Assembly: GCF_003991155.1 (NCBI RefSeq)
Contig: NZ_CP031294.1
DNA from: Escherichia coli
Lineage (GTDB): Bacteria; Pseudomonadota; Gammaproteobacteria; Enterobacterales; Enterobacteriaceae
DNA: 64,000 bases
Reading direction: 5' to 3' (one strand)
Below the pieces are notes generated by a model. It worked only from the letters and a program-made list of their open reading frames with translations, had not been told where the DNA came from and searched no databases. The number at the start of each line of letters is the position of its first letter. Position 1 is the stretch's first letter. Positions 17,616-63,960 of the stretch are shown here, one piece after another. The position numbers and the translations under genes were made by a program.

Positions 17616-18506
17616 TTATGCCGGTAAAGCAATTTCTAACGGTTTATCCAAAGGTTGTTTGTCGAATGCCAGCAGTGGCAGCGTGTCAGGCAGTCGACGG
17701 CCAAAGTCAGGGTTTCGGTACACACCATACAACGGAGACGTAAAGCTCAGGTTGTGAATGTCCTTGAGCAGCTTCACAATGCTGGCCTCGTCCACCAGAC
17801 TGTCGGCAATGTCCTGAATCGTCGTGCCACGATTCCGCCCAGCTTTTGCCAGGGAACTGTTCTTATGGTAGTCCGCCACCAAATCGCGCAGCGCACGGCG
17901 ACGACGAGACTCGCTCATAGCGAACAACTCTTTGACGATCGCCTCGTTATCACCCGGGTCGGAGCGGAAATGGCGCTGGAACACACGCAGTGCACTTTCA
18001 TAGCTCTTCGGTCGCTCAGGGCGGATGAACTTAAACCCTGCTTTCATGGCGAAGGGATTGTATTTGCTCATCGAGGACTGGATCTCAATGATTGGCCGGT
18101 CATGCATCCTGCTAACCAGGTTAATCATTCTATAAGAGACGCCTACGCCACGATACTGAGTATCCACAACTGAGCGACTGATCACCGCAAAGTTGTTATT
18201 CACGTACCGACCCCAGTACTGGTTAGCCACGGTGGTATTAGTGGTTGGTTTCAACTTAGGAAACATGCGGTGGCGAGGTGCCAACAGTAGTTTCGGGTAA
18301 GCCATAACCACGACGCCCACCAGACGGTCATCAAGTTCGCAGCGATAGTAAGTTGGCGCGAAAGGTTTGCCGTCTGTTTTGTAGTGAAGCGACTTAAGAG
18401 CGTGCCAGTCCTCTACAGTTCCCTTTGTAACAGTCATTCGCTCCAGAAAGTCCAGATGACGCGGAAACTCTTCAGGGCGGTAGCGTTTAATGATGATGTC
18501 CGTCAT
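17616..18506 (-). CDS. hypothetical protein with possible GNAT-like acyltransferase motif
   Basis: 296 aa; segment VVDTQYRGVGVSYRMINLV resembles GNAT motif A (Q/R-x-x-G-x-G/A); weak. Confidence 0.3.
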   Translation of the reverse strand: MTDIIIKRYRPEEFPRHLDFLERMTVTKGTVEDWHALKSLHYKTDGKPFAPTYYRCELDDRLVGVVVMAYPKLLLAPRHRMFPKLKPTTNTTVANQYWGRYVNNNFAVISRSVVDTQYRGVGVSYRMINLVSRMHDRPIIEIQSSMSKYNPFAMKAGFKFIRPERPKSYESALRVFQRHFRSDPGDNEAIVKELFAMSESRRRRALRDLVADYHKNSSLAKAGRNRGTTIQDIADSLVDEASIVKLLKDIHNLSFTSPLYGVYRNPDFGRRLPDTLPLLAFDKQPLDKPLEIALPA

Positions 18507-19168
18507 GAATGGACCTCATCATGACTACCATTGTGATATTCCACCTTCACGCGTTCTTTGTAGTGCTTGGTGATCTGCATATCAGGGCGCAGCGCGTTCT
18601 TCAGGTCTTCGTGAGTCGTCGCCACCATTACCGTCGCACCAACCTTTCGAGCGGCACGCTGGAGGTTAGACGCCACAACCTGAGCGGTTACACGGTCGAG
18701 AACAGCGCCGAACTCGTCAGCAGCCCATACTTTAGCGCCTGACTCAATCAGTTTGGCAATCTTGAGACGATATTTCTGGCCGTCTGACATTTCAGAAGGC
18801 TTGCGAACAAACAGATATGCATCGTTCAGACCAGCCATAGATAACAACCCAAGCGCATCACTGGTCGTTTTGCCCAACTGATCGATGACGTTAACCTCAT
18901 TATCGAAGGTAAAATCATCGATGGAGGCTACAGACAGCCCTTCATCCTTCATCTGTCGTTGCAACTCGCGCAGCACAACGGATTTGCCGGAACCGGATTG
19001 GCCGGTGATGTACACCACATCGCCCTGCTTCACTTCCAGCTCCAGATTGTCGTAAAGCGTCCACTCTTTTTCGTCCAGGCCAAGCCCGAACGACTCAGCG
19101 ATTTCCAACGTGCGCGTGGTTTTATTTACGCGTGTCTGAAACGATACGTTGATGATGTATTTGCTCAT
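18503..19168 (-). CDS. ABC-type ATPase (stand-alone nucleotide-binding domain)
   Basis: Walker A GQSGSGKS, signature-like SDGQKYRL, Walker B VWAADEF, H-loop ATTHE. Confidence 0.6.
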   Translation of the reverse strand: MSKYIINVSFQTRVNKTTRTLEIAESFGLGLDEKEWTLYDNLELEVKQGDVVYITGQSGSGKSVVLRELQRQMKDEGLSVASIDDFTFDNEVNVIDQLGKTTSDALGLLSMAGLNDAYLFVRKPSEMSDGQKYRLKIAKLIESGAKVWAADEFGAVLDRVTAQVVASNLQRAARKVGATVMVATTHEDLKNALRPDMQITKHYKERVKVEYHNGSHDEVHS

Positions 19169-19866
19169 GCAGCCATCTCCCCGGAAGAGATCTTCTCCGC
19201 ATATGCCACAAATGCGTCTACCCCGCTTTCTCCCGTCATTTCTTCCATATGGGCAAGCAAATCACCAACAACAATGGCAGAGCCAGCAGGGAGCGTTTTA
19301 AAGCCCAATACGTCGACAACACGTACTTCTTCCGCTGCAACTTCACGACTGATCTCGGTGTGTTCATCCTTCTGTCGTTTAGTTTCTTCGCCAAGATCGA
19401 TAACTAGCGAGTCGGTGTCCATTTCTTCTGTCATACTGCCAACGAGAACATTCAACTCACGCTCTTCAAAGCCGAAAACCTCGATATCGTCCAGAACAAG
19501 CGACTCAAGCTCTTTCTGTAGCTTAATTGCATCGTAATCAATGCTGGCAAGTCGGTTATCTTCAAGGCGCTTCGCACGAACCTCGTCATCACTGAGATCA
19601 TCGCGAACAATAACCGGTACGCGCTCAAGTCCAGCAAAAATTGCAGCCTCACGGCGGCCGTGGCCAGTAATAATTACGTCGTTCTTATCGACCGTAATTG
19701 GCTGGTCAAATCCGCGCTTTTTAATGGCTGCGGCTAGATCTCGGATCTGCTGTTCATCATGCTTTTTGGCATTCATCTCATAGGGAATAAGATCTGCCGG
19801 GTCGCGATATACGATTTCAAACTTTTTGGTCATTACATACGCTCCTTGTAGTAGTCGACCAGCCAC
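19165..19866 (-). CDS. ParB-like nuclease domain protein
   Basis: N-terminal ParB/Srx-type motif ITGHGRREAA; acidic C-terminus. Confidence 0.55.
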   Translation of the reverse strand: MAGRLLQGAYVMTKKFEIVYRDPADLIPYEMNAKKHDEQQIRDLAAAIKKRGFDQPITVDKNDVIITGHGRREAAIFAGLERVPVIVRDDLSDDEVRAKRLEDNRLASIDYDAIKLQKELESLVLDDIEVFGFEERELNVLVGSMTEEMDTDSLVIDLGEETKRQKDEHTEISREVAAEEVRVVDVLGFKTLPAGSAIVVGDLLAHMEEMTGESGVDAFVAYAEKISSGEMAA

Positions 19867-20531
19867 ACCAGAGCCTCACCAGCGTTCTCCATTTCATTAC
19901 CGGTGTTAATAGCCTGCTCTTTGATGATGTTTTTTATGGTTTCTGCAACACGATCTGACGCATCGAAAGTTACTTTGAAGCGCATGGTCTGATGTTCCGC
20001 ACCCACACGTTCGGTTTTCTCTCGTTTGTCGGTATCGACAGGCTCATCACTACCACGAGACAACGCCTCCAGTGCTTCAAGGTCGATTGCCGCCTCTTTT
20101 GCTAAAACCATCGAGATTTCGTCGTCATACGGAGCGATTTCAGACAGTTGATAGTCAAGTTCTGACTGAATTTCTTCAATGAAGCGTTGCAATGCGATTT
20201 GGTCGTCTTCACCGTATCGCTCGTTGTCCACCAGTGACATCTGTTTAGCTACGACATCGCTAATTTTGCCCACAGAAAGCACCGGAACCGTTGAAATTCC
20301 TTGCTCAATAGCAGCACGCCAGCGATGTTCGCCGCCGAGGATTTCAAAAAATCCATCTTCAAGTTCACGAGCCAAAATTGGCTTAAAAAAGCCCAATTTT
20401 TCGATAGAACCTTTCAGTTTTTCAAAATTCTGCGCACCAACCGAATTGGTGTTCCAGGTATTCGGGCGAAGGTTGGCAACATCAACCTGCAAAATCGTGA
20501 TTTTTACATCCATTTTATTGCTACAATCCAC
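19833..20531 (-). CDS. ParB-like nuclease domain protein
   Basis: N-terminal ParB-type motif LGGEHRWRAA. Confidence 0.55.
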   Translation of the reverse strand: MDCSNKMDVKITILQVDVANLRPNTWNTNSVGAQNFEKLKGSIEKLGFFKPILARELEDGFFEILGGEHRWRAAIEQGISTVPVLSVGKISDVVAKQMSLVDNERYGEDDQIALQRFIEEIQSELDYQLSEIAPYDDEISMVLAKEAAIDLEALEALSRGSDEPVDTDKREKTERVGAEHQTMRFKVTFDASDRVAETIKNIIKEQAINTGNEMENAGEALVWLVDYYKERM

Positions 20532-22462: not shown

Positions 22463-22927
22463 ATGAAGTCTCCCATACTGTTCACTTTCTGTTCTAAAAC
22501 TATCATGAAATACTCGCTTCTCCCTCTACTAACGTTACCAGTGTTGATGCTTGCCGCGTGCCAATCACACCCAATATCAATCCATGACGCCAAACCAGCA
22601 CCGCAGGCCAAAGTGTTCAAGTATCAAAGCGCAGCGCCAGCTACGTTGGTGGTAATGAGAGACACAGGTTTTGTAGGAGCTGGATGTGATGCTTCCATTT
22701 TCATCAACGGCGAAACTGTCGCAAAACTGGCTACAGGCGAAAAAGCGACTTTCCATTTAAATGCCGGAGAATTAATTGTGGGTGCATCTCTTGAAGGTGC
22801 AGGTTTATGTGCTCTAAACCCCGCTCGTCAAGAGCGAGAAACGACTCTGAAGAATGGAGACACAAAAGCGTTCAGGGTGTTTACCAGCAATTCTGGTGAC
22901 ATCGACATTCTGCCAACAACTCTGTGA
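22463..22927 (+). CDS. lipoprotein (predicted)
   Basis: GGGAGA RBS; signal peptide ending in lipobox LAAC; 154 aa. Confidence 0.55.
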   Translation: MKSPILFTFCSKTIMKYSLLPLLTLPVLMLAACQSHPISIHDAKPAPQAKVFKYQSAAPATLVVMRDTGFVGAGCDASIFINGETVAKLATGEKATFHLNAGELIVGASLEGAGLCALNPARQERETTLKNGDTKAFRVFTSNSGDIDILPTTL

Positions 22928-22931
22928 TGAC

Positions 22932-23456
22932 ATGACAACCAAAGATATTACCTACGGTATCCAAGCTGAACTCTGGCCGCGAGATTACACTAACGTTGAA
23001 AAACTACTGATGTTCTGGCGCAGAGAACAAATTCCTGTAAGGGTCACTCTCGAAGATGGCCAGGCGTTTTGCATGTACGTTTATGGCCTCATGCCATCTC
23101 GTAACAAAGTTGACCTTTGCCCAGCCCCTTTTGACAAAGAAAATCGTATAAGGCTCCCACTTGAACGCATTAGTACAATTGAATCAGGTGTGGTTGACAG
23201 TATCGCTCACGATTTCAAAGGTCGACTAACAGTTCACCCTGATTATGTCGATAATCGGCCATCACGCCGCGATTTTTTTGCAATTTGCAACCAAGCCTAC
23301 AAAGCAAACAAATCTATAAGGGTGTACATGGCGGATGGCCGTGAAATTGAGGGGGTGTCAGCAGGCGCAGATGCTTGTCAGGTTACACTACGTGTCGAGA
23401 ACGGTAGAAAAATAGTTGTTTTGTTCGATTGGGTTGAACGAATTTTGCCTTTTTGA
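22932..23456 (+). CDS. hypothetical protein
   Basis: Start placed at ATG 22932 (MTTKDITYG), same frame as ORF 22854..23456 but after lipoprotein stop. Confidence 0.4.
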   Translation: MTTKDITYGIQAELWPRDYTNVEKLLMFWRREQIPVRVTLEDGQAFCMYVYGLMPSRNKVDLCPAPFDKENRIRLPLERISTIESGVVDSIAHDFKGRLTVHPDYVDNRPSRRDFFAICNQAYKANKSIRVYMADGREIEGVSAGADACQVTLRVENGRKIVVLFDWVERILPF

Positions 23457-24052: not shown

Positions 24053-24703
24053 ATGGCTAACATTATCATTTCTAAAAAATCCATCATTGAAGCTGCTTCC
24101 ATTGTATCCGATGAACTGCGCGAAAAAGCAGATCTGGCAACTCAAACATATAACGAACATTATAAAAATGGTACGCACACTAAAGCAGACAAAGCAAATA
24201 TGCAAGCTGCGACCACTAAACTTGCTTACTTCATCAACAACGTCGTAAACGCAGTAGAAGACGAAAAATTATGCTCTGTTTTCTACTATGCGATTAAAGC
24301 AAGCAAACAAGCGCCAGAAGTATTTTTCCGTGATGCAATGACTAATAGTTATTCTCTGGAAAAACTGGTTTATCTGGTTAAATCAATTAAATCTGGTAAA
24401 TGCGTTTATTCCATCGCTGATATGTCTGGATCTCGTGTATTCGCTTTAATCGATATGATTAACGACGAGATCGACACGTTCACTAATGGCGCTGTTTTCG
24501 ATTTAATGAATGAAGCTAAAAAAGCGTGTGAAATTAAATTGGACGCTGGTTATACTCAAGCCAACCAGTTGATCAATCTTTGCGAACGTCTTGGACTTGT
24601 TGAAAAAGTCAAAGGAGCTGGGAGCGCGAAAGCTGGTACTCAGCAATATCGCTTCATTAAAAATGATTTCTACAATTATTTAGCTGATGCTTTCAAAGCG
24701 TAA
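24053..24703 (+). CDS. hypothetical protein, probably highly expressed
   Basis: 216 aa, optimal-codon bias (ctg, cgc, ggt, gct, atc), strong promoter upstream, hairpin terminator just downstream. Confidence 0.55.
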   Translation: MANIIISKKSIIEAASIVSDELREKADLATQTYNEHYKNGTHTKADKANMQAATTKLAYFINNVVNAVEDEKLCSVFYYAIKASKQAPEVFFRDAMTNSYSLEKLVYLVKSIKSGKCVYSIADMSGSRVFALIDMINDEIDTFTNGAVFDLMNEAKKACEIKLDAGYTQANQLINLCERLGLVEKVKGAGSAKAGTQQYRFIKNDFYNYLADAFKA

Positions 24704-24975: not shown

Positions 24976-25206
24976 ATGTTTGTTCTTATCGCTGGCGTTA
25001 ACGTCCATAACGAATATTATGTTAATCGCATCGCTGGGATCGCTGGTTACGCTGGGCGCGCAGTCGAGTTTATCGATGAAACAACGCGTAAAATTGATTT
25101 ATTGAGCGACCAGGAGCGAAAAAAAGCAGACGTGAACGACGCTGATATATTTTTAATGTTAAAAGCGTTTGTAGAAATGGGATTTAAAATCAGTTTACAC
25201 AAATAA
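24976..25206 (+). CDS. small hypothetical protein
   Basis: 76 aa, AAGGAG RBS. Confidence 0.45.
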   Translation: MFVLIAGVNVHNEYYVNRIAGIAGYAGRAVEFIDETTRKIDLLSDQERKKADVNDADIFLMLKAFVEMGFKISLHK

Positions 25207-25212
25207 AATCGA

Positions 25213-25240
25213 GCGCCCACTATGGGCGCTTTTTTCGTTT
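25213..25240 (+). terminator. rho-independent terminator
   Basis: gcgcccactatgggcgc hairpin followed by tttttt. Confidence 0.75.
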
Positions 25241-25257
25241 CCAATACTTCCACAATA

Positions 25258-25285
25258 ACGCGCCATTGATGGCGCGTTTTTTATT
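25258..25285 (+). terminator. rho-independent terminator (second of tandem pair)
   Basis: cgcgccattgatggcgcg hairpin followed by ttttttatt. Confidence 0.75.
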
Positions 25286-25823
25286 GTCTTTAACTCACTC
25301 CAACAACATAAAAATAAGCGCCAAAATAACGCCATAAACGCGCTTTTATATCCTTACCAGTACATACCCATTACTTAACACATTAACGCGCTTAAAACGC
25401 GTTATATTGCGCTATAGCGTATGGTTAATCATTGGCTTTTAGTCTTGCTATGTGATCCGCGTTTATTTGTCGGCGCGGATCGGCATTTTGTTTTGTTCCG
25501 TATCCGCTCGCGTATTATGTGCGCGTGATTTTTCACATAATCACACCACTTAATCACGTATGTGATTATGCTACGAAAGAAATCTGGATGTCTCAGGCGA
25601 CGAAAGTCATCATAATTTTCCCCGCTCGCCTGTCCGACAACCGCTGGTTGGATTCCACCAGCTTCCCGATGTTTTTTTCTACATAAAGGCGAATGCAGCC
25701 GTTTCCCGAAAAAATCCTGGCCGTTTCCCGTCGGCTCATGAATACGTTCCTCGCCGTTTCTGAAAATTTCCCTGCGGCAGCTGGTGGCTATAGAGAAAGG
25801 GCCGTTTCTGGCCCTCTTCTCAG

Positions 25824-26306
25824 TTACACGCCATCAAGGATGTGGATGCGGTTGCTTGCGTATACATTCAGCATAAAGTTAGCGCAAAACAGTTTCCATG
25901 TATCAACGCCAGCGGTATACGTAATGTTTTTGCATTTAATCGCATTGTTGGCGATCCGCATCCCCTGCGATACTGCTTCATCGTCGGAAAATTTGAACGA
26001 CGATTGAGTTTTAATCCAGACAGAAATCTGCGTAGCGAACTCAATCAGCTTGGACTGGCAGAATCGCCCGGAGCGCACCGGAAAGACGAACGTTCCGAAT
26101 CCAGAATTTACCACATATGCTTTCTCAAATACCCGCGAGTAACGACGATTGCCAATGATGTCGCGTGCAATAATGCATTTTTCTTGTGCTGACAGTTCTA
26201 CCGTCTCATTGTCGCGCCATGCACCAAGTACTCGTTTTTCAATGTCAGAGAACGTTACAGCGATATTGCCATGTGCGGGTGCGTTTACAGTAGCGATAAA
26301 ATTCAT
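25824..26306 (-). CDS. hypothetical early protein
   Basis: 160 aa; AGGA RBS; motif-A leader directly upstream (26326-26362). Confidence 0.5.
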   Translation of the reverse strand: MNFIATVNAPAHGNIAVTFSDIEKRVLGAWRDNETVELSAQEKCIIARDIIGNRRYSRVFEKAYVVNSGFGTFVFPVRSGRFCQSKLIEFATQISVWIKTQSSFKFSDDEAVSQGMRIANNAIKCKNITYTAGVDTWKLFCANFMLNVYASNRIHILDGV

Positions 26307-26510
26307 GATTAATTCCTTATCGTAAATAACAAATTGTTTTCTTGTTGGTGTTAATTATCGTTGTACGAATAAGGCGTCAAAGTGGAAAGTTGCGGTAGCC
26401 GGACGGGAACAGGTGGGTTTGTCGGTTGCCTGGAGGTAAGAGGTTGGTGTTTTTAGCCTGCGGGAAACAGGATGGTCATTTAAGGCCACCAGCATTGGTG
26501 GCCTTAATCT

Positions 26511-26791
26511 TTAGTGGAGCAGACCGATGTCGATGGTATCCCCTGAATCATCCACACGGATCATCAGCATGGCAAAGGCGTTTAGTGGATAGCTTGCGTG
26601 CCATTCAGGGAAGCGGTCATCTCGCATGAAGTCGGCAATGTCGTAAACGCATCCCTCAAAGTGGAAGAATCGCGTGCTTACCTGCTCGTCATAATCCACA
26701 TGATCCATTTCTTGCTGTTCTGTTTCCGGCAAGTCCAGCCATGATTCAAGAAATACATTTTGTGCTTTAGGGGTAATGGTGAAATCAGTCA
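26511..26791 (-). CDS. small highly acidic protein
   Basis: ~93 aa with ~19 Asp/Glu vs ~5 Lys/Arg; start at ATG 26789-26791 (ORF-track upstream extension runs through promoter motif). Confidence 0.5.
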
Positions 26792-27127
26792 TGAGCATAT
26801 CCTCACTGCGTAAACATGTTGTTTTCTTGTTGGTGTAATTATCGCAGTGTAGATAAGGCATAAAAGAAGTTAATACAGGCTGAATACACAAGAAAGGTTC
26901 TGGAAGTTGATAGCCAGGTTTCAAACTAACCTTCGGTTATTAAAAGTCATTTAAGACCACCAATGCTGGTGGCCTTAATAATTATCGCCCGATTACGCTA
27001 AGGATCTTTTCCTCAACTGATTTGTTGTTGCGACTAAACTGCCTTGCGTATCTGATGACAGAAGAGGCGTTTTGCTTTCTGACCATCTCGGCTCTTTCCT
27101 TCAGGCGTTTCTTGAAATCGCCCATAT

Positions 27128-27502
27128 TTACCACCAGGCGCAGAAGGTCAGTCTGTTATTGTGAAAGTCGTGGTTCTTAATCAGATCTTCCACAAGCTCT
27201 TTCAACTCCCCCACATCATGCCAGTAACCTTCATCGTACTCCTGACTGCCGAAGAAAAAACCTTCCCGGGTAGGCAAGTACTCTTCGCAATTACTTTCGT
27301 TTATGTGCATCAAATGAGCCTTCAGAAAACAAATGTCATTCATCGTTAATTCTAAAAGCTCACAATTTTCGACTTCACCTACGTTGCGCTCCATCCACCC
27401 AACGAGCGCATTGAACTTACGGAAGTAAGCAACCTGCTTTCTGGATGCCTCGTTATTCAGATCGTTTTTAGGCTGTGTCTCGATATAGATATCAAGTCCC
27501 AT
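27128..27502 (-). CDS. hypothetical early protein
   Basis: Start placed at ATG 27500-27502 (MGLDIYIETQ) with AAGGAA RBS. Confidence 0.45.
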   Translation of the reverse strand: MGLDIYIETQPKNDLNNEASRKQVAYFRKFNALVGWMERNVGEVENCELLELTMNDICFLKAHLMHINESNCEEYLPTREGFFFGSQEYDEGYWHDVGELKELVEDLIKNHDFHNNRLTFCAWW

Positions 27503-27619
27503 GATGGTTTCCTTATTAAGTTGCTTCAGTGAAATCATTTTCACAAATCAGATAAGGCAGAAAACAAATTGTTATCGGGCATAAGAAAATGGCGCGGTTT
27601 ACGCGCCATTCAAAGAGGA

Positions 27620-28015
27620 TTAAGCGAATACGCTTTCAGGGATTAAGGTGTCAGCAGGAATGCCGGAGGTAATGCGCAGGCCGTACTGACCAATCCAGGT
27701 AGTGTTGGTATTCAGGCTGGAGGCGAATACGGTGTTAACCATATTCATCATGGTTTCAAACACCTCTTCATCAACCTGGCGGAAGTAGTTCTCGATTTTC
27801 AGCAGCAGCGGGTCAGTTGCATCGAAAATAGACTGGTATTGAGTCGCGTACTCGCCGCCGGAGGCATCACCTTTACGCACGATCGTACTGGCCTGGACTT
27901 CGGCACCAGTTTCGGTGTTGTACGTAACAACGGTGATTTTTGCCACATTCTTACCTTCGGCGGTTTCAGAGGCATAGTAAACATCAACTGTCAGTTTTTC
28001 GCGTTTAACGGTCAT
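27620..28015 (-). CDS. hypothetical early protein
   Basis: Start placed at internal ATG (MTVKREKL) with GGAGAG RBS; terminator hairpin downstream at ~27572-27598. Confidence 0.45.
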   Translation of the reverse strand: MTVKREKLTVDVYYASETAEGKNVAKITVVTYNTETGAEVQASTIVRKGDASGGEYATQYQSIFDATDPLLLKIENYFRQVDEEVFETMMNMVNTVFASSLNTNTTWIGQYGLRITSGIPADTLIPESVFA

Positions 28016-28141
28016 TTCACTCTCCGTAGTGTTTTGGTTATTTTTATATTCTATGATCGTAAGTATGTACTTACAATACAAAAAAGCCCCGTAAGGATGG
28101 CGGGGCTGTCGTACTGTCGACTAATTACCACTTGCACATTA

Positions 28142-28453
28142 TCAGGCTATTGCCATCACTGATGCTCTCTGAATCTCTTGCTGGGCCACGCGGTTAACTT
28201 CCATCAAAGCCAGTTCGAGCTGATGTTCCGGCCACATTCTTTGAAATGCCACCCAGCCTTTTCCACGCTGGCGACGAACATTCATTACATAACGAGTAAA
28301 GGTGTATTTATCGAAAGACACCGCTGTTTCACGGAACAGACGAATAGAGGTTCCATTGGCAACGATGTCCAGCAAAGTTAATTGAGCAACCAGCGCAGGC
28401 TTCTCTTTTCTCTTCTGGTCTTTGTCCAGACCAAGAACCAATGATTTTTTCAT
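28142..28453 (-). CDS. hypothetical early protein
   Basis: Start at ATG 28451-28453 (MKKSLVLGL), GGAG RBS, motif-A leader at 28465-28490. Confidence 0.45.
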   Translation of the reverse strand: MKKSLVLGLDKDQKRKEKPALVAQLTLLDIVANGTSIRLFRETAVSFDKYTFTRYVMNVRRQRGKGWVAFQRMWPEHQLELALMEVNRVAQQEIQRASVMAIA

Positions 28454-28606
28454 CACAACTCCGTAAACAACTTGTTTTCTCAATGGCGTAAATAATACCA
28501 GTAAGAAAACGGCTACAAAGCATATTGATCAGGTGCATGAGCGATATGCAGGTTCTTCCCTGCGGCTATAGAGAAATTAAGCCAGCATTGCTGGCTTTGG
28601 TTAGGT

Positions 28607-28936
28607 TTACTCGAATACTTCAAGAAACTCCTGAACGTCCCAATGCTGGACAAGGTGAAGATAGACCTTAGAAATAACATCATTCTCGCTATCGCATGTG
28701 AAGTAGTACTTCTGGCTGCGGTTGTATGTGTCCACACAAAATTCGCTCATATCCATAAAGTCAGCATCTTCACCCATGTCGCAAATCATCAAAGCAGGTG
28801 CGTCATCACGAGTCATCAGCTCAAGCACCCACCGCGAATTGATCAGAGTGGAAGACCAACCTTCTAACTCATAAAACTGATCAAACTCTTTTTGAGTTAA
28901 TTTCTTGATTTGGTTGATGTCGATATTTGCAAACAT
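28607..28936 (-). CDS. hypothetical early protein
   Basis: Start at ATG 28934-28936 (MFANIDINQ), AGGA RBS, motif-A leader at 28948-28983. Confidence 0.45.
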   Translation of the reverse strand: MFANIDINQIKKLTQKEFDQFYELEGWSSTLINSRWVLELMTRDDAPALMICDMGEDADFMDMSEFCVDTYNRSQKYYFTCDSENDVISKVYLHLVQHWDVQEFLEVFE

Positions 28937-30490
28937 AAAGCAATCCTTAAACAACATGTTTTCTTGATGGTGTTATTATCGCAATAACGCACAGGTGAAA
29001 AAGGATTTTATTCCGGTGAATGTGGTTTTGGCAGTGAGTTTTCAGGTTCAGTACCGAGTACACTTTTTACATTATTCTGATTTAGTGGCCGAAGGTGGCT
29101 GGTGGGCAGAATAATCCTCTCCCCGAAAACCTACTGAAATCGATTGTGACCCGTTGGCTGTCTGGCACAATTACGCTGTAACTGGGCATTCAGAGGGAAT
29201 CCAGCGGTAAGTAAGTTCGCCTGCACGTGAGCGCCTCTCTTCTTCCCGCACATTACAGGTGGGTAGCCGCAACTCTCCCTCTCGCTATACCGGTACGCCG
29301 CCGTTCCTGAACCGGCATCGAGCCTTCTCCCGAAATCCACACAGGCAACTCGACCGTTTCCCTGAAAACCTCCAGCCGTTCCCCGAAGGCAACCCAGCCG
29401 TTTCTGTAGCGGGATGCAACCTTTTCCCTGTATGGACCGAAGGCTGACCGTAGGGGTGTTACGGGGGATAAAATCAGGAGTTGAATAAATACGAAAAAGG
29501 AGGCGACACCCCTCCTTCTCTCCCCACTTATACATACCTGGCTTCTTCGCTATACATGTTGTGTTTTATTCGTGTTTTATCTGTCTCAACCTCTCTATGG
29601 ACGTTAATACTCACTCCTTCCAGAACGTTCTATACGGCGACTAATTCTGTTGGTGAATTGGGTGTGTTGTTCTCTCTGTCGGTGTATGTGGTTTCGTTCG
29701 TTTTGCGGTGGTTCTTCTATGGGGTGTTCTCGTCGTTTTGGTGATTGTTCTTCTCCGTGTATGGAGTAATGGCAGGTGGGCGATTCCTTTCGTTATTGTG
29801 TTTGAGTTGTTTGTCTGGAGTGCGTGAAGGGCTTTTGTAGTTATTCGTGTGTTGGGTAATGGCGTTTCCCGTGATTGTTCTGTTTCGTGTCTTTTGGGAT
29901 TGAGAGAAACCTTGCGGTTACAGGCTTCGTTGGGGTTTCAGTGATTCTGGTGTTTCTTCGCTGTTTGGGTAATGGCGTGTCGTGGGTATCGCGCGTATGG
30001 AAGTTTCGAATTGCCTGTGAAAGTTAGGTTGGTTGTCCGGTAGCCTGAGAAGAAGAGGTGGGTCTTTTCGGTAGCCTGCCATAAAGAGGTTGGTTGTTTT
30101 TGGTAATGGCATATGTGTTATTTAGTTGTTTTGTTATGCCTGAAAATAAGTTGTTTATATGGTTATGTAACGCAACGGGAACGATTTTGAGCGTGTGTTT
30201 TTGTTGGTAGTGTGTTGGGTCGTCTGTGGTGAAAATTGGACGCTGTGGCGCTGTCTGCTGCGTAGAATTACGGGTATAAGCAGTGATGTGTGAAAACGTC
30301 AATTTTTTAGACCAAATCGGGTGAAAGCGTTGATGTTTCGTTGATCTGTTATTCAGTTGTTTTCTTATTGGTATAAACAACTGTAACCTATTGATATTTA
30401 AGGATGTGATTCCAGGCATGGAAGGGGAGTAGTGGCGATCAACGGATTCTTATAGAAAAGAATCAAATTGTGACCGCCATTATCAATGTT

Positions 30491-33922: not shown

Positions 33923-35023
33923 ATGAGCGAGTCCAAATCGCCGGATGCCCTGAGAGCAATGGTAGCCGGTACGCTGGCTAATTTTCAGCACCCAACCCTG
34001 AAACACAACCTGACTACGCTTAAAGCGTTACACCATGTTGCGTTGATGGATGACACACTGCATGTCGAACTAATCATGCCTTTCGTGTGGAATAAGCCTT
34101 TTGAAGACCTGAAAGAGCAATGTAGTGGTGATCTGCTCCGTATCACTGGCGCAAAGGCTATTGACTGGAAGCTGTCGTACAACATTGCCACGCTTAAGCG
34201 CGTCAAAAACCAACCAGGCATTAATGGCGTTAAGAACATTATCGCCGTCAGCTCAGGCAAGGGCGGCGTGGGTAAATCCTCCACGGCGGTAAACCTGGCA
34301 CTGGCGTTGGCTGCTGAAGGTGCGAAAGTTGGTATTTTGGATGCCGATATCTATGGTCCATCAATTCCAACCATGCTGGGCGCGGAAAACCAACGTCCAA
34401 CCTCACCTGACGGTACTCACATGGCACCTATCATGTCTCATGGCCTGGCAACCAACTCTATTGGTTATCTGGTCACCGACGACAATGCAATGGTGTGGCG
34501 TGGACCGATGGCCAGCAAGGCGCTGATGCAGATGTTGCAGGAAACTCTATGGCCTGATCTGGACTATCTCGTTCTCGATATGCCGCCGGGCACTGGTGAT
34601 ATTCAGTTGACGCTGGCGCAGAACATTCCTGTAACTGGTGCGGTTGTGGTAACTACGCCGCAAGACATCGCGCTGATCGATGCGAAGAAAGGCATTGTGA
34701 TGTTCGAAAAAGTCGAAGTGCCGGTACTGGGTATCGTCGAAAACATGAGTGTGCATATTTGCAGTAACTGCGGTCATCACGAGCCAATTTTTGGCACCGG
34801 TGGCGCACAGAAACTGGCCGAGAAATACAACACGCAGTTGTTAGGCCAAATGCCACTTCATATCTCTCTTCGTGAAGATCTGGATAACGGAACACCAACC
34901 GTTATTAGTCGTCCAGATAGCGAATTTACGGCTATTTATCGTGACCTCGCAGATCGCGTTGCCGCCCAAATGTATTGGCAAGGTGAAGTAATACCTGGCG
35001 AAATCGCATTCCGCGCAGTGTGA
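33923..35023 (+). CDS. apbC: Fe-S cluster carrier ATPase ApbC/Mrp
   Basis: 366 aa; P-loop SSGKGGVGKSSTAVNLALALA; CxxC motif ICSNCGHHEP; divergent from metG as in Escherichia chromosome. Confidence 0.95.
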   Translation: MSESKSPDALRAMVAGTLANFQHPTLKHNLTTLKALHHVALMDDTLHVELIMPFVWNKPFEDLKEQCSGDLLRITGAKAIDWKLSYNIATLKRVKNQPGINGVKNIIAVSSGKGGVGKSSTAVNLALALAAEGAKVGILDADIYGPSIPTMLGAENQRPTSPDGTHMAPIMSHGLATNSIGYLVTDDNAMVWRGPMASKALMQMLQETLWPDLDYLVLDMPPGTGDIQLTLAQNIPVTGAVVVTTPQDIALIDAKKGIVMFEKVEVPVLGIVENMSVHICSNCGHHEPIFGTGGAQKLAEKYNTQLLGQMPLHISLREDLDNGTPTVISRPDSEFTAIYRDLADRVAAQMYWQGEVIPGEIAFRAV

Positions 35024-63354: not shown

Positions 63355-63430
63355 GATAGATCCAAATAAGAGATCCCAAGTAAGATCAAATAGAAGATCC
63401 AAAGAGATCCCCGATCGCCTCTAGCCGTTG
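63355..63430. promoter_or_regulatory. DnaA-box-like site plus cluster of six GATC sites
   Basis: ttatccact followed by agatcc/agatccc/agatca/agatcc/agatcccc/cgatcg within ~65 bp. Confidence 0.6.
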
Positions 63431-63454
63431 CGGTTACTGGTCTGAAAGGGTGTT

Positions 63455-63568
63455 GCCATCCACTATGGAGAGCAAAGAAACCTCTGTAGAGAGCTGAATA
63501 ACCGCTATGAAGAGTAAAACAACCACTCTGGAGAGCTGTATATATCCACTGTAGAGAGTAGAGCACAT
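63455..63568. repeat. iteron array 1 (five ~22-bp direct repeats, core CCACTNTAGAGAG)
   Basis: atccactatggagag, cctctgtagagag, ccgctatgaagag, ccactctggagag, ccactgtagagag at ~22-bp spacing. Confidence 0.8.
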
Positions 63569-63716
63569 TGTCTTTTATGGATAACTTAATGACTTAATTC
63601 TTCATTAACATACTGATATACATAGATATATTTTAAACTCTACTCTTAGTCATGATTCTTATGTCCTTAAATATCCACAGAAGAGTAGAGTTACCTGTTC
63701 TTGAAATCCTCTGATT

Positions 63717-63725
63717 TTTATCCAC
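63717..63725. promoter_or_regulatory. consensus DnaA box TTATCCACA
   Basis: Exact 9-mer read in sequence, preceding GATC-containing repeats and iteron array 2. Confidence 0.6.
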
Positions 63726-63837
63726 AGGCCCGATCCAGTAATTCAGATCACAAAGAGAACCAAAGAGACCCATAAAGACCCAATAAGATCCCCGCCCACC
63801 TCAAACCGTTGTGCCATCTGCCTTCAGACATGATCGA

Positions 63838-63960
63838 TATCCACTATAGAGAGCGAATAATCCACTATAGGGAGCAAAGCAACCACTATAGAGAGGAGAA
63901 AAACCACTATAGACGGTAGGATAACCGCTGTGATGAGTGCTACTATCCACTGTAATCAGC
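63838..63960. repeat. iteron array 2 (six ~21-bp direct repeats, core CCACTATAGAGAG)
   Basis: ccactatagagag, ccactatagggag, ccactatagagag, ccactatagacgg, ccgctgtgatgag, ccactgtaatcag. Confidence 0.8.

Follow-up and report, generated by a model that had tools for sequence, protein, structure and literature searches.

Two phased direct-repeat arrays flanking a variable gene block of an SSU5-like phage-plasmid: candidate binding sites for an element-encoded protein

The stretch of Escherichia coli DNA analyzed here, a 64,000-nt window of contig NZ_CP031294.1 (assembly GCF_003991155.1), is by its sequence an SSU5-like phage-plasmid, and it carries two arrays of a short, phased direct repeat that bracket a block of small minus-strand genes. 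Judging from their anatomy and conservation, these arrays are probably double-stranded DNA sites at which protomers line up in a row along one helix face. Our best explanation overall, which we advance tentatively, is that they are double-stranded binding-site arrays for a protein encoded by the phage-plasmid itself, with an origin-type role. A megablast search with positions 25300–29700 matched Escherichia phage Cyrano (pLF82) over the full length at 98.3% identity, as well as further SSU5-like phage-plasmids from E. coli and Klebsiella, and the RefSeq plasmid pEC17CM6_2 is 99.9% identical to the window DNA. The window is antiparallel to the Cyrano record and spans Cyrano 60.8–108.4 kb plus 1–16.4 kb.

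The two arrays and the hairpin next to the first of them are as follows:

25695–25765, plus strand: array 1, three phased units with the core CWG-CCGTTTC-Y

29297–29431, plus strand: array 2, six phased units

25792–25821, minus strand: terminator hairpin of the gene at 25824–26306, predicted by folding, with the loop GTTTCT on the plus strand

The motif core is CCGTTTCC, and the extended site, yCWG-CCGTTTCC-c, is asymmetric and covers ~12 bp. Three core copies and one additional copy are found at 25698–25811 and six at 29300–29431, and all of them share one orientation. Cluster 1 reads GCCGTTTCCCG at 25698 and 25720 and GCCGTTTCTG at 25753 and 25801. In array 1, the CC dinucleotides start at 25699, 25721, and 25754, giving spacings of 22 and 33 bp; in array 2, they start at 29301, 29323, 29354, 29376, 29398, and 29420, giving spacings of 22, 31, 22, 22, and 22 bp. 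The fourth copy of cluster 1 (25801–25811) corresponds to the loop of the hairpin GGGCC-GTTTCT-GGCCC and has the lowest score with a position weight matrix (PWM) of the motif, 11.7. This hairpin is kept in Klebsiella through a compensatory change (GGGGC/GCCCC compared to GGGCC/GGCCC in E. coli), and the motif is displayed in the terminator loop in three lineages. A preliminary description of this DNA had listed four copies in cluster 1, all of which are in place, the fourth being this terminator loop; for cluster 2 it had given about five, where we count six, the last four of them 22 bp apart.

The motif is strongly enriched in the two clusters. The pattern GCCGTTYCYS matches seven times in 64 kb, always on the plus strand and within the clusters, compared to a mean of 0.8 and a maximum of 3 matches in dinucleotide shuffles, and 8 of the 12 plus-strand matches of CCGTTYC in the window fall into the clusters. 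When the core is loosened to CC[GT]T[TC][CT]C, up to six copies fall on one strand within 130 bp, whereas 300 dinucleotide shuffles gave clusters of at most four and typically two. The density of this loosened core is 38 per kb in the clusters versus 0.35 per kb per strand elsewhere. The enrichment test suggested in the preliminary description thus reveals clustering beyond all shuffles and a density ~110-fold over the rest of the window; coding DNA does not carry the motif at similar density, and the original observation is confirmed. Outside the two clusters, the PWM scan of the window and the rest of the 108-kb Cyrano genome detected no third cluster and not a single site reaching 13.8 bits, a scan that is partly circular as the PWM was trained on nine of the same sites and 13.8 bits is the lowest training score.

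An alignment of 52 distinct units from seven divergent genomes showed that flanks not forced by the search pattern still carry information: positions −4 to −1 (C, C/T, A/G, G) and +7/+8 (C, C) hold 0.5–0.9 bits, compared to 0.04–0.26 bits in the spacers. Because the flanks are informative and the spacers are not, the site can be described as an asymmetric core of ~12 bp within a variable spacer. Of the ~250 distances between units in a set of 73 non-redundant arrays, 22 bp accounts for 143, and the rest cluster at 31, 33, 34, 38, 44, and 48 bp; the most distant relatives space the core at 10, 12, 24, and 26 bp. Most of these spacings are close to whole helical turns, 38 and 48 bp being exceptions.

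Both clusters are located in non-coding DNA, as had been proposed before. Cluster 1 lies in a 617-bp gap between the converging genes 24976–25206 (plus strand) and 25824–26306 (minus strand), and cluster 2 within a gene-free locus of 1.55 kb. In the 99.9%-identical plasmid, the Prokaryotic Genome Annotation Pipeline (PGAP) leaves 25207–25823 and 28937–30490 empty, and it calls nothing in 28950–30050 in a sample of the locus-bearing E. coli plasmids (12 of 236 listed). The only coding claim on either array is an open reading frame (ORF) that we regard as spurious:

29131–29535, minus strand: ORF over array 2, annotated as CYRAN_104 in Cyrano, with a similar call, SSU5_109, in SSU5

This ORF has no Pfam or PHROG match, its translation is of low complexity, and PGAP makes no call. 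Its frame is not conserved and is shifted by the loss of one 22-bp unit in PhiR41_1 and one CMS-2020a plasmid. It was rejected as a real gene on all these counts, and a coding tandem repeat was rejected since the 22-bp period is not a multiple of 3 and the reading frame is not conserved. The PGAP gaps and the evidence against this ORF together indicate that both clusters are non-coding.

The array locus was found on plasmids of 236 out of 5,426 complete E. coli genomes, and the SSU5-like group also occurs in Klebsiella, Salmonella, Enterobacter, Citrobacter, and Cronobacter. Comparison with related elements, as recommended in the preliminary description, showed that the arrays are conserved in E. 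coli, Klebsiella, SSU5, and distant relatives. Both are present in Klebsiella phage-plasmids, although megablast fails to align the region of array 2, and SSU5 itself, a Salmonella phage, has both as well. Scanning IMG/VR for an exact pattern of two cores at 22-bp spacing retrieved dozens of contigs of ~105–112 kb with both arrays, and two distant relatives, in which neighboring proteins are just 30–62% identical, keep both as well. The array 1 spacing of 22 and 33/34 bp is maintained in Klebsiella, SSU5, and the IMG/VR relatives. Across relatives the core is kept while the spacers drift, and the copy number of 3–7 changes by whole units: array 2 is shorter by exactly one 22-bp unit in PhiR41_1 and CMS-2020a SCU-175, and by ~53 bp in relative L041. 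The arrays flank the minus-strand small-gene block in every relative examined, so that the bracketing reported earlier holds throughout; the distance between them ranges from 1.5 to 4.2 kb, and the gene content and length of the bracketed block vary between relatives.

Terminators border both arrays, and a promoter followed by a long untranslated stretch lies upstream of array 2 in the minus sense:

29494–29520, minus strand: intrinsic terminator ~65 bp upstream (minus sense) of array 2, conserved in relatives

29521–30302, minus strand: sigma70-like promoter (TTGACG-N17-TTATAC at 30302–30273) and ORF-less A+C-rich stretch, predicted to be transcribed

The last cassette gene ends in a minus-strand terminator at which array 1 begins, and on its other side array 1 is preceded by four plus-strand terminator-like hairpins (25211–25525). 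The terminator at 29520–29494 is strong and ends the C/A-rich untranslated unit. No promoter is predicted to overlap either array. Both arrays are thus predicted to lie in transcription-quiet spacers just past intrinsic terminators. Behind the promoter, ~750 nt have no ORF and an A+C content of 64–73%, with a plus-strand AT skew down to −0.65; a transcript of this unit is predicted to begin near 30267 and to have its 3′ end near 29494. TTGACG-N17-TTATAC is located 806–936 bp upstream of array 2 in 10 of 12 relatives checked, including those from E. coli and Klebsiella, SSU5, and one of the two distant relatives; no match to it was obtained in L132, in which no array was called, or in the truncated L041. 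An ORF at 30024–30419 (minus strand), annotated as CYRAN_103, contains the promoter and has no family match and no PGAP call. From its sequence, 29494–30302 (minus strand) looks like a long non-coding RNA gene overlaid by two hypothetical coding sequences (CDSs) of Cyrano.

The C/A-rich stretch at 29494–30302 also holds GCCATTACCCA repeats; in distant relatives these read TTACCCACA or TTATCCACA, resembling a DnaA box. A ~30-nt repeat with the rough minus-strand consensus ACCNACCTC-N8-CAGGCTACCG is present in five copies within 26389–26482 and 30034–30100; some of them open the C/A-rich region and others precede the gene at 25824–26306. The repeat is also found in Klebsiella relatives. In the spacer to the left of array 1 (25207–25690), (A)TAACGC(GC) is repeated about five times and ACATAATCACA...TGTGATTATGT forms an inverted repeat; at 25529, a 9-mer fits the DnaA-box pattern TTWTNCACA, and 25636–25565 holds two promoter-like sites on the minus strand. 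This spacer may contain a small transcription unit of its own or another binding site. On either side of array 1 there is a Chi octamer (GCTGGTGG), the two in opposite orientation (25655, minus strand; 25780, plus strand), an arrangement repeated in Klebsiella relatives (L004, positions 4938 and 5082), and 5 of the 18 Chi sites of the window fall within 25655–29105.

Two genes near array 1 are of interest with regard to a binder:

24053–24703, plus strand: candidate binder of 216 aa (phrog_1513; identical to WP_001273881.1), modeled by AlphaFold2 (AF2) with an N-terminal helical bundle and a C-terminal winged helix

25824–26306, minus strand: conserved gene for a 160-aa protein (phrog_1641), adjoining array 1 and the sole conserved gene inside the bracket

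No annotated DNA-binding family came up when all neighboring ORFs were scanned with Pfam and PHROG. The AF2 model of the 24053–24703 protein, with a predicted local distance difference test (pLDDT) score of 84, shows a five-helix N-terminal bundle and an H-b-H-H-b-b arrangement at residues 128–201. Foldseek searches of the PDB with this model returned winged-helix DNA binders only, at high probability and E-values of 0.01–0.2: Orc1/Cdc6, MukE, TubR, RTP, CodY, and PadR/MarR. The top match is Orc1/Cdc6 bound to origin DNA, and that to TubR is weak (E = 0.06). No PDB sequence was matched by a profile of the family. The phrog_1513 family is confined to SSU5-like elements, and its gene lies 0.7–1.4 kb from array 1 in every locus with enough flanking sequence. 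The putative recognition helix (Y167–I174) and the wing are near-invariant across the family, which fits the invariant core of the DNA site; core and position of the arrays are retained in relatives whose winged-helix protein is only 53–62% identical. Judging from its modeled fold and its synteny, this protein is the best candidate for the array binder and may plausibly be it. The 160-aa protein gave a confident model (pLDDT 91) and no structural match.

Further genes surround the locus. SSU5-like elements share a conserved gene, here at 22854–23456 (plus strand), whose product is homologous to the phase-1 flagellin repressor FljA (Pfam Flag1_repress, E = 2.5e-84); the gene is probably a moron that influences flagellin expression in the host. 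At 18503–20531 (minus strand), two adjacent ParB_N-domain proteins (19165–20531) are followed by a small ABC-type ATPase; this arrangement, divergent from a UvsW-like helicase gene, is kept in all relatives, including the distant ones. An orphan ParA/MinD-like ATPase is encoded at 33923–35023.

The arrays differ from the replication iterons of the element. Tandem repeats in one orientation with a dominant period of 22 bp are what is expected of Rep-type iterons (~17–22 bp), yet no Rep-family match was found between or beside the arrays. The true RepA iterons are located at 63358–63913, between an ASCH-domain gene and repA, and consist of 21-bp repeats (CCACTATAGAGAGCGAAAAAA) and 10–13-bp repeats; RepA itself (CYRAN_63) is encoded just beyond the end of the window. 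This fits the description of IncpKPHS1 plasmids, which have four iterons downstream of repA (PMC6735626). Since their sequence differs, the true iterons are elsewhere, and RepA is 34 kb away, the arrays were rejected as RepA iterons. A centromere of the ParA locus was rejected likewise: no similar repeats occur near parA, and the annotated operon is at Cyrano 29.3 kb, ~65 kb away. The iteron or protein-binding look noted earlier is in part borne out: the units share one orientation and are phased at roughly helical turns, their core is conserved while the spacers drift, and copies come and go as whole units. The arrays are, however, neither RepA iterons nor next to the par operon.

How might such arrays work? 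With head-to-tail sites about one, two, or three helical turns apart, protomers would be placed on one face of the helix, and one multi-protomer complex could be built per array. The specific role that we favor, by analogy, is an origin-type bipartite cis-site like P4 ori/crr, which we consider possible but doubtful. Array 2, with a strong promoter upstream and a predicted long untranslated RNA coupled to it, would initiate replication independently of RepA (in the lytic phase), and array 1, next to an AT-rich, repeat-rich 450-bp spacer, would be an auxiliary site or pairing partner of array 2; near array 1, AT-rich, repeat-rich spacer sequence is located at 25280–25450. An origin-type role is supported because the element encodes its own helicase, primase, Pol III alpha, ligase, RNase H, and UvsW/UvsY/gp32-type proteins while the RepA origin is the sole origin annotated in Cyrano, and because array 2 is coupled, in relatives as well, to a predicted promoter-driven untranslated transcript that ends ~65 bp from it, a setting known from transcript-activated or transcript-primed origins. 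The top Foldseek match of the candidate binder, Orc1/Cdc6 on origin DNA, also counts in favor, and other extrachromosomal prophages have documented RNA-based origins (PMC7157519). The joint proposal that the arrays, the winged-helix protein, and the C/A-rich RNA of ~750 nt form an undescribed RepA-independent bipartite origin with its control, and that the protein founds a new initiator family combining an Orc1/Cdc6-like lid with a winged helix, goes further and is unlikely as a whole.

Also counted in favor of an origin-type role, 22-bp-phased iterons that share the 9-mer GCCGTTTCC with the arrays are true origin repeats in the O-like initiator gene of an unrelated phage family. These lambdoid phages (IMG/VR contigs of 30–45 kb) carry 22-bp palindromic iterons, ATTCGGCTCTTGAGCCGTTTCC, within the O-like gene (e.g., L049 7133–7290 and L024 4886–4999). 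Homology was rejected as the reason for the common 9-mer, the initiator being unrelated to the winged-helix protein (hhalign probability 0.1), and from the sequences GCCGTTTCC is apparently shared by coincidence.

Several observations weigh against an origin-type role. No conserved DnaA or IHF sites accompany the arrays, and the sole AT-rich box by array 2, 31 bp at 29468–29498 (81% AT), overlaps the T-tract of the terminator. The whole-genome GC skew tracks transcription and shows no origin signature, and a GATC scan was uninformative. The arrays are ~60 kb from the helicase and primase genes, and array 1 is situated in a zone of convergent transcription, unusual for an origin. The winged-helix protein has no sequence similarity to known initiators; the case for it as binder consists of fold and synteny, with weak Foldseek E-values. 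Moreover, a short core with flexible spacing suits centromere or architectural arrays no less than Rep-type iterons.

A boundary or silencing function is somewhat unlikely in our view. The arrays would then mark both edges of the variable block and act as insulators or as roadblocks to transcription, or they would loop through oligomerization of the bound protein, in the style of lambda OL–OR, and so silence the block in the plasmid state. Both arrays lie 0–70 bp downstream of minus-strand terminators and present the same polarity to incoming RNA polymerase, array 1 is additionally shielded by the four plus-strand terminators, and the block whose gene content changes is flanked in every relative at the distances given above. 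The large N-terminal helical bundle of the candidate protein could oligomerize. However, no predicted promoter overlaps the arrays, asymmetric direct repeats are unusual for looping repressors, and the cassettes each bring a promoter module of their own, whose operator-like sequence is palindromic and differs from the array motif. Lambda-type looping operators were rejected as such, since the sites are asymmetric and no promoter-like site overlaps them. We know of no precedent for boundary-type arrays in phage-plasmids.

The cassette modules deserve a description of their own. A 55-nt module is present upstream of four cassette genes (26328–26382, 26812–26866, 28466–28520, and 28950–29004) and contains the palindrome GTTATTGCGATAATAAC at the promoter/ribosome-binding site region, which resembles an operator. 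This sequence arrangement suggests joint regulation of the small minus-strand genes by another repressor, one that binds dyads. In addition, a 28-bp palindrome, TTAAGGCCACCAGCATTGGTGGCCTTAA, flanks one cassette gene (26480–26507 and 26951–26978); it forms a bidirectional terminator-like hairpin and carries a Chi octamer.

Quite unlikely, too, are centromere-like partition sites bound by a small adaptor that would link the plasmid prophage to a segregation motor, as in parC/ParR, tubC/TubR, or pB171 parC1/parC2. The array anatomy matches the centromere pattern of a short core in direct repeats at helical-turn spacing in two clusters, and the positions appear insulated from transcription. The candidate adaptor would be the winged-helix protein, with TubR, albeit weakly, among its fold matches, and the orphan ParA/MinD-like ATPase and the two ParB_N proteins are encoded by the same element. 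What speaks against such sites is that there is no nucleoside triphosphatase (NTPase) gene beside the arrays or the winged-helix gene, the neighboring genes being without ATPase or GTPase domain, and that ParB-type proteins normally use palindromic sites. The distant ParA operon lacks such repeats and has an 18-bp perfect inverted repeat downstream.

Recognition at the RNA level is very unlikely. In this scenario, the minus-strand sequence (G/A)GAAACGG would be a site for an RNA-binding protein, either in a CsrB-like GGA sponge or as a target of the FljA-like protein. FljA is an mRNA-binding regulator, and the Flag1_repress gene is a neighbor, 2 kb away. GGA is found in 7 of 10 minus-strand copies, the terminator loop displays the motif in the three lineages mentioned above, and array 2 may lie in the long leader of the first cassette. 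Yet about a quarter of the units carry AGA instead of GGA, and folding z-scores are non-significant on either strand (−0.26 and +0.54 for array 2, −0.84 and −1.65 for array 1, the last value being due to the terminator hairpin). Rfam searches at gathering and E-value thresholds gave nothing relevant for the arrays. Array 1 is beyond a terminator on the minus strand and beyond four on the plus strand, and helical-turn phasing would be meaningless for RNA. A CsrA/CsrB-type sponge was rejected because ~25% of the units lack GGA and there is no structure signal, no Rfam match, and no fitting transcript unit; the FljA-like protein was rejected as array binder because this would require plus-strand read-through of four terminators.

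That the repeats are non-functional, arising by chance, as coding repeats of ORF 29131–29535, or from a decaying duplication, is extremely unlikely: hypothetical CDSs are annotated over array 2 in Cyrano and SSU5, but no shuffle reaches the observed clustering with its ~110-fold enrichment, the period does not fit codons, the ORF is not conserved, has no homologs, and is not called by PGAP, and the core is conserved across genera while the spacers diverge.

In the full-text literature searched, we found no description of these arrays and, for SSU5-like elements, no cis-acting sites besides RepA and its iterons, i.e., no lytic origin, immunity operators, or accessory maintenance sites. These elements are widespread, and little of their cis-acting repertoire has been charted. 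Resistance genes can ride on SSU5-like phage-plasmids, as known from the literature. The arrays are the clearest unassigned predicted protein-binding sites in the genome and come with a testable candidate binder. As they flank a hypervariable block, their role would explain its replication, insulation, or exchange, and they could serve as a typing or engineering handle.

Among known systems, plasmid iterons (the 22-bp repeats of R6K gamma; P1 incC/incA and RepFIB, flanking repA) resemble the arrays as tandem repeats of ~22 bp in one orientation, by two clusters a few kb apart, and by whole-unit changes in copy number. In contrast to these, the arrays neither adjoin nor bracket a Rep gene, the RepA of the element having separate 21-bp iterons; the conserved core covers only ~12 bp, and no DnaA box or clear DNA unwinding element was found. 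P4 ori/crr consists of one short asymmetric motif in two clusters several kb apart, both bound by one protein, and is similar in its kb-separated clusters on a phage-plasmid-like element; the P4 binder, however, is the alpha primase-helicase, while the candidate here is a small predicted winged-helix protein with no enzymatic domain. Centromere arrays (R1 parC/ParR, pBtoxis tubC/TubR, pB171 parC1/parC2) share short direct repeats, helical-turn spacing, and, in some cases, two clusters, and TubR is a winged-helix protein that appears among the fold matches of the candidate; unlike them, the arrays have no adjacent cognate NTPase gene and are not by the ParA operon. Lambda OL/OR likewise comprises two clusters of three or more phased sites, 2–4 kb apart, that bracket genes, but the lambda operators are palindromic and overlap promoters, whereas the sites here are asymmetric direct repeats without a promoter. 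RNA-based origins of mycobacteriophage prophages (PMC7157519) and transcript-primed ColE1-type origins have in common with the locus a promoter and a long untranslated transcript, here in a large non-coding locus of a plasmid prophage; in contrast, a terminator stops the predicted RNA short of the repeats, and the element has a RepA origin as well. Thus, the arrays appear to be phased protein-binding repeat arrays of a kind that is already familiar, and this pair is newly described.

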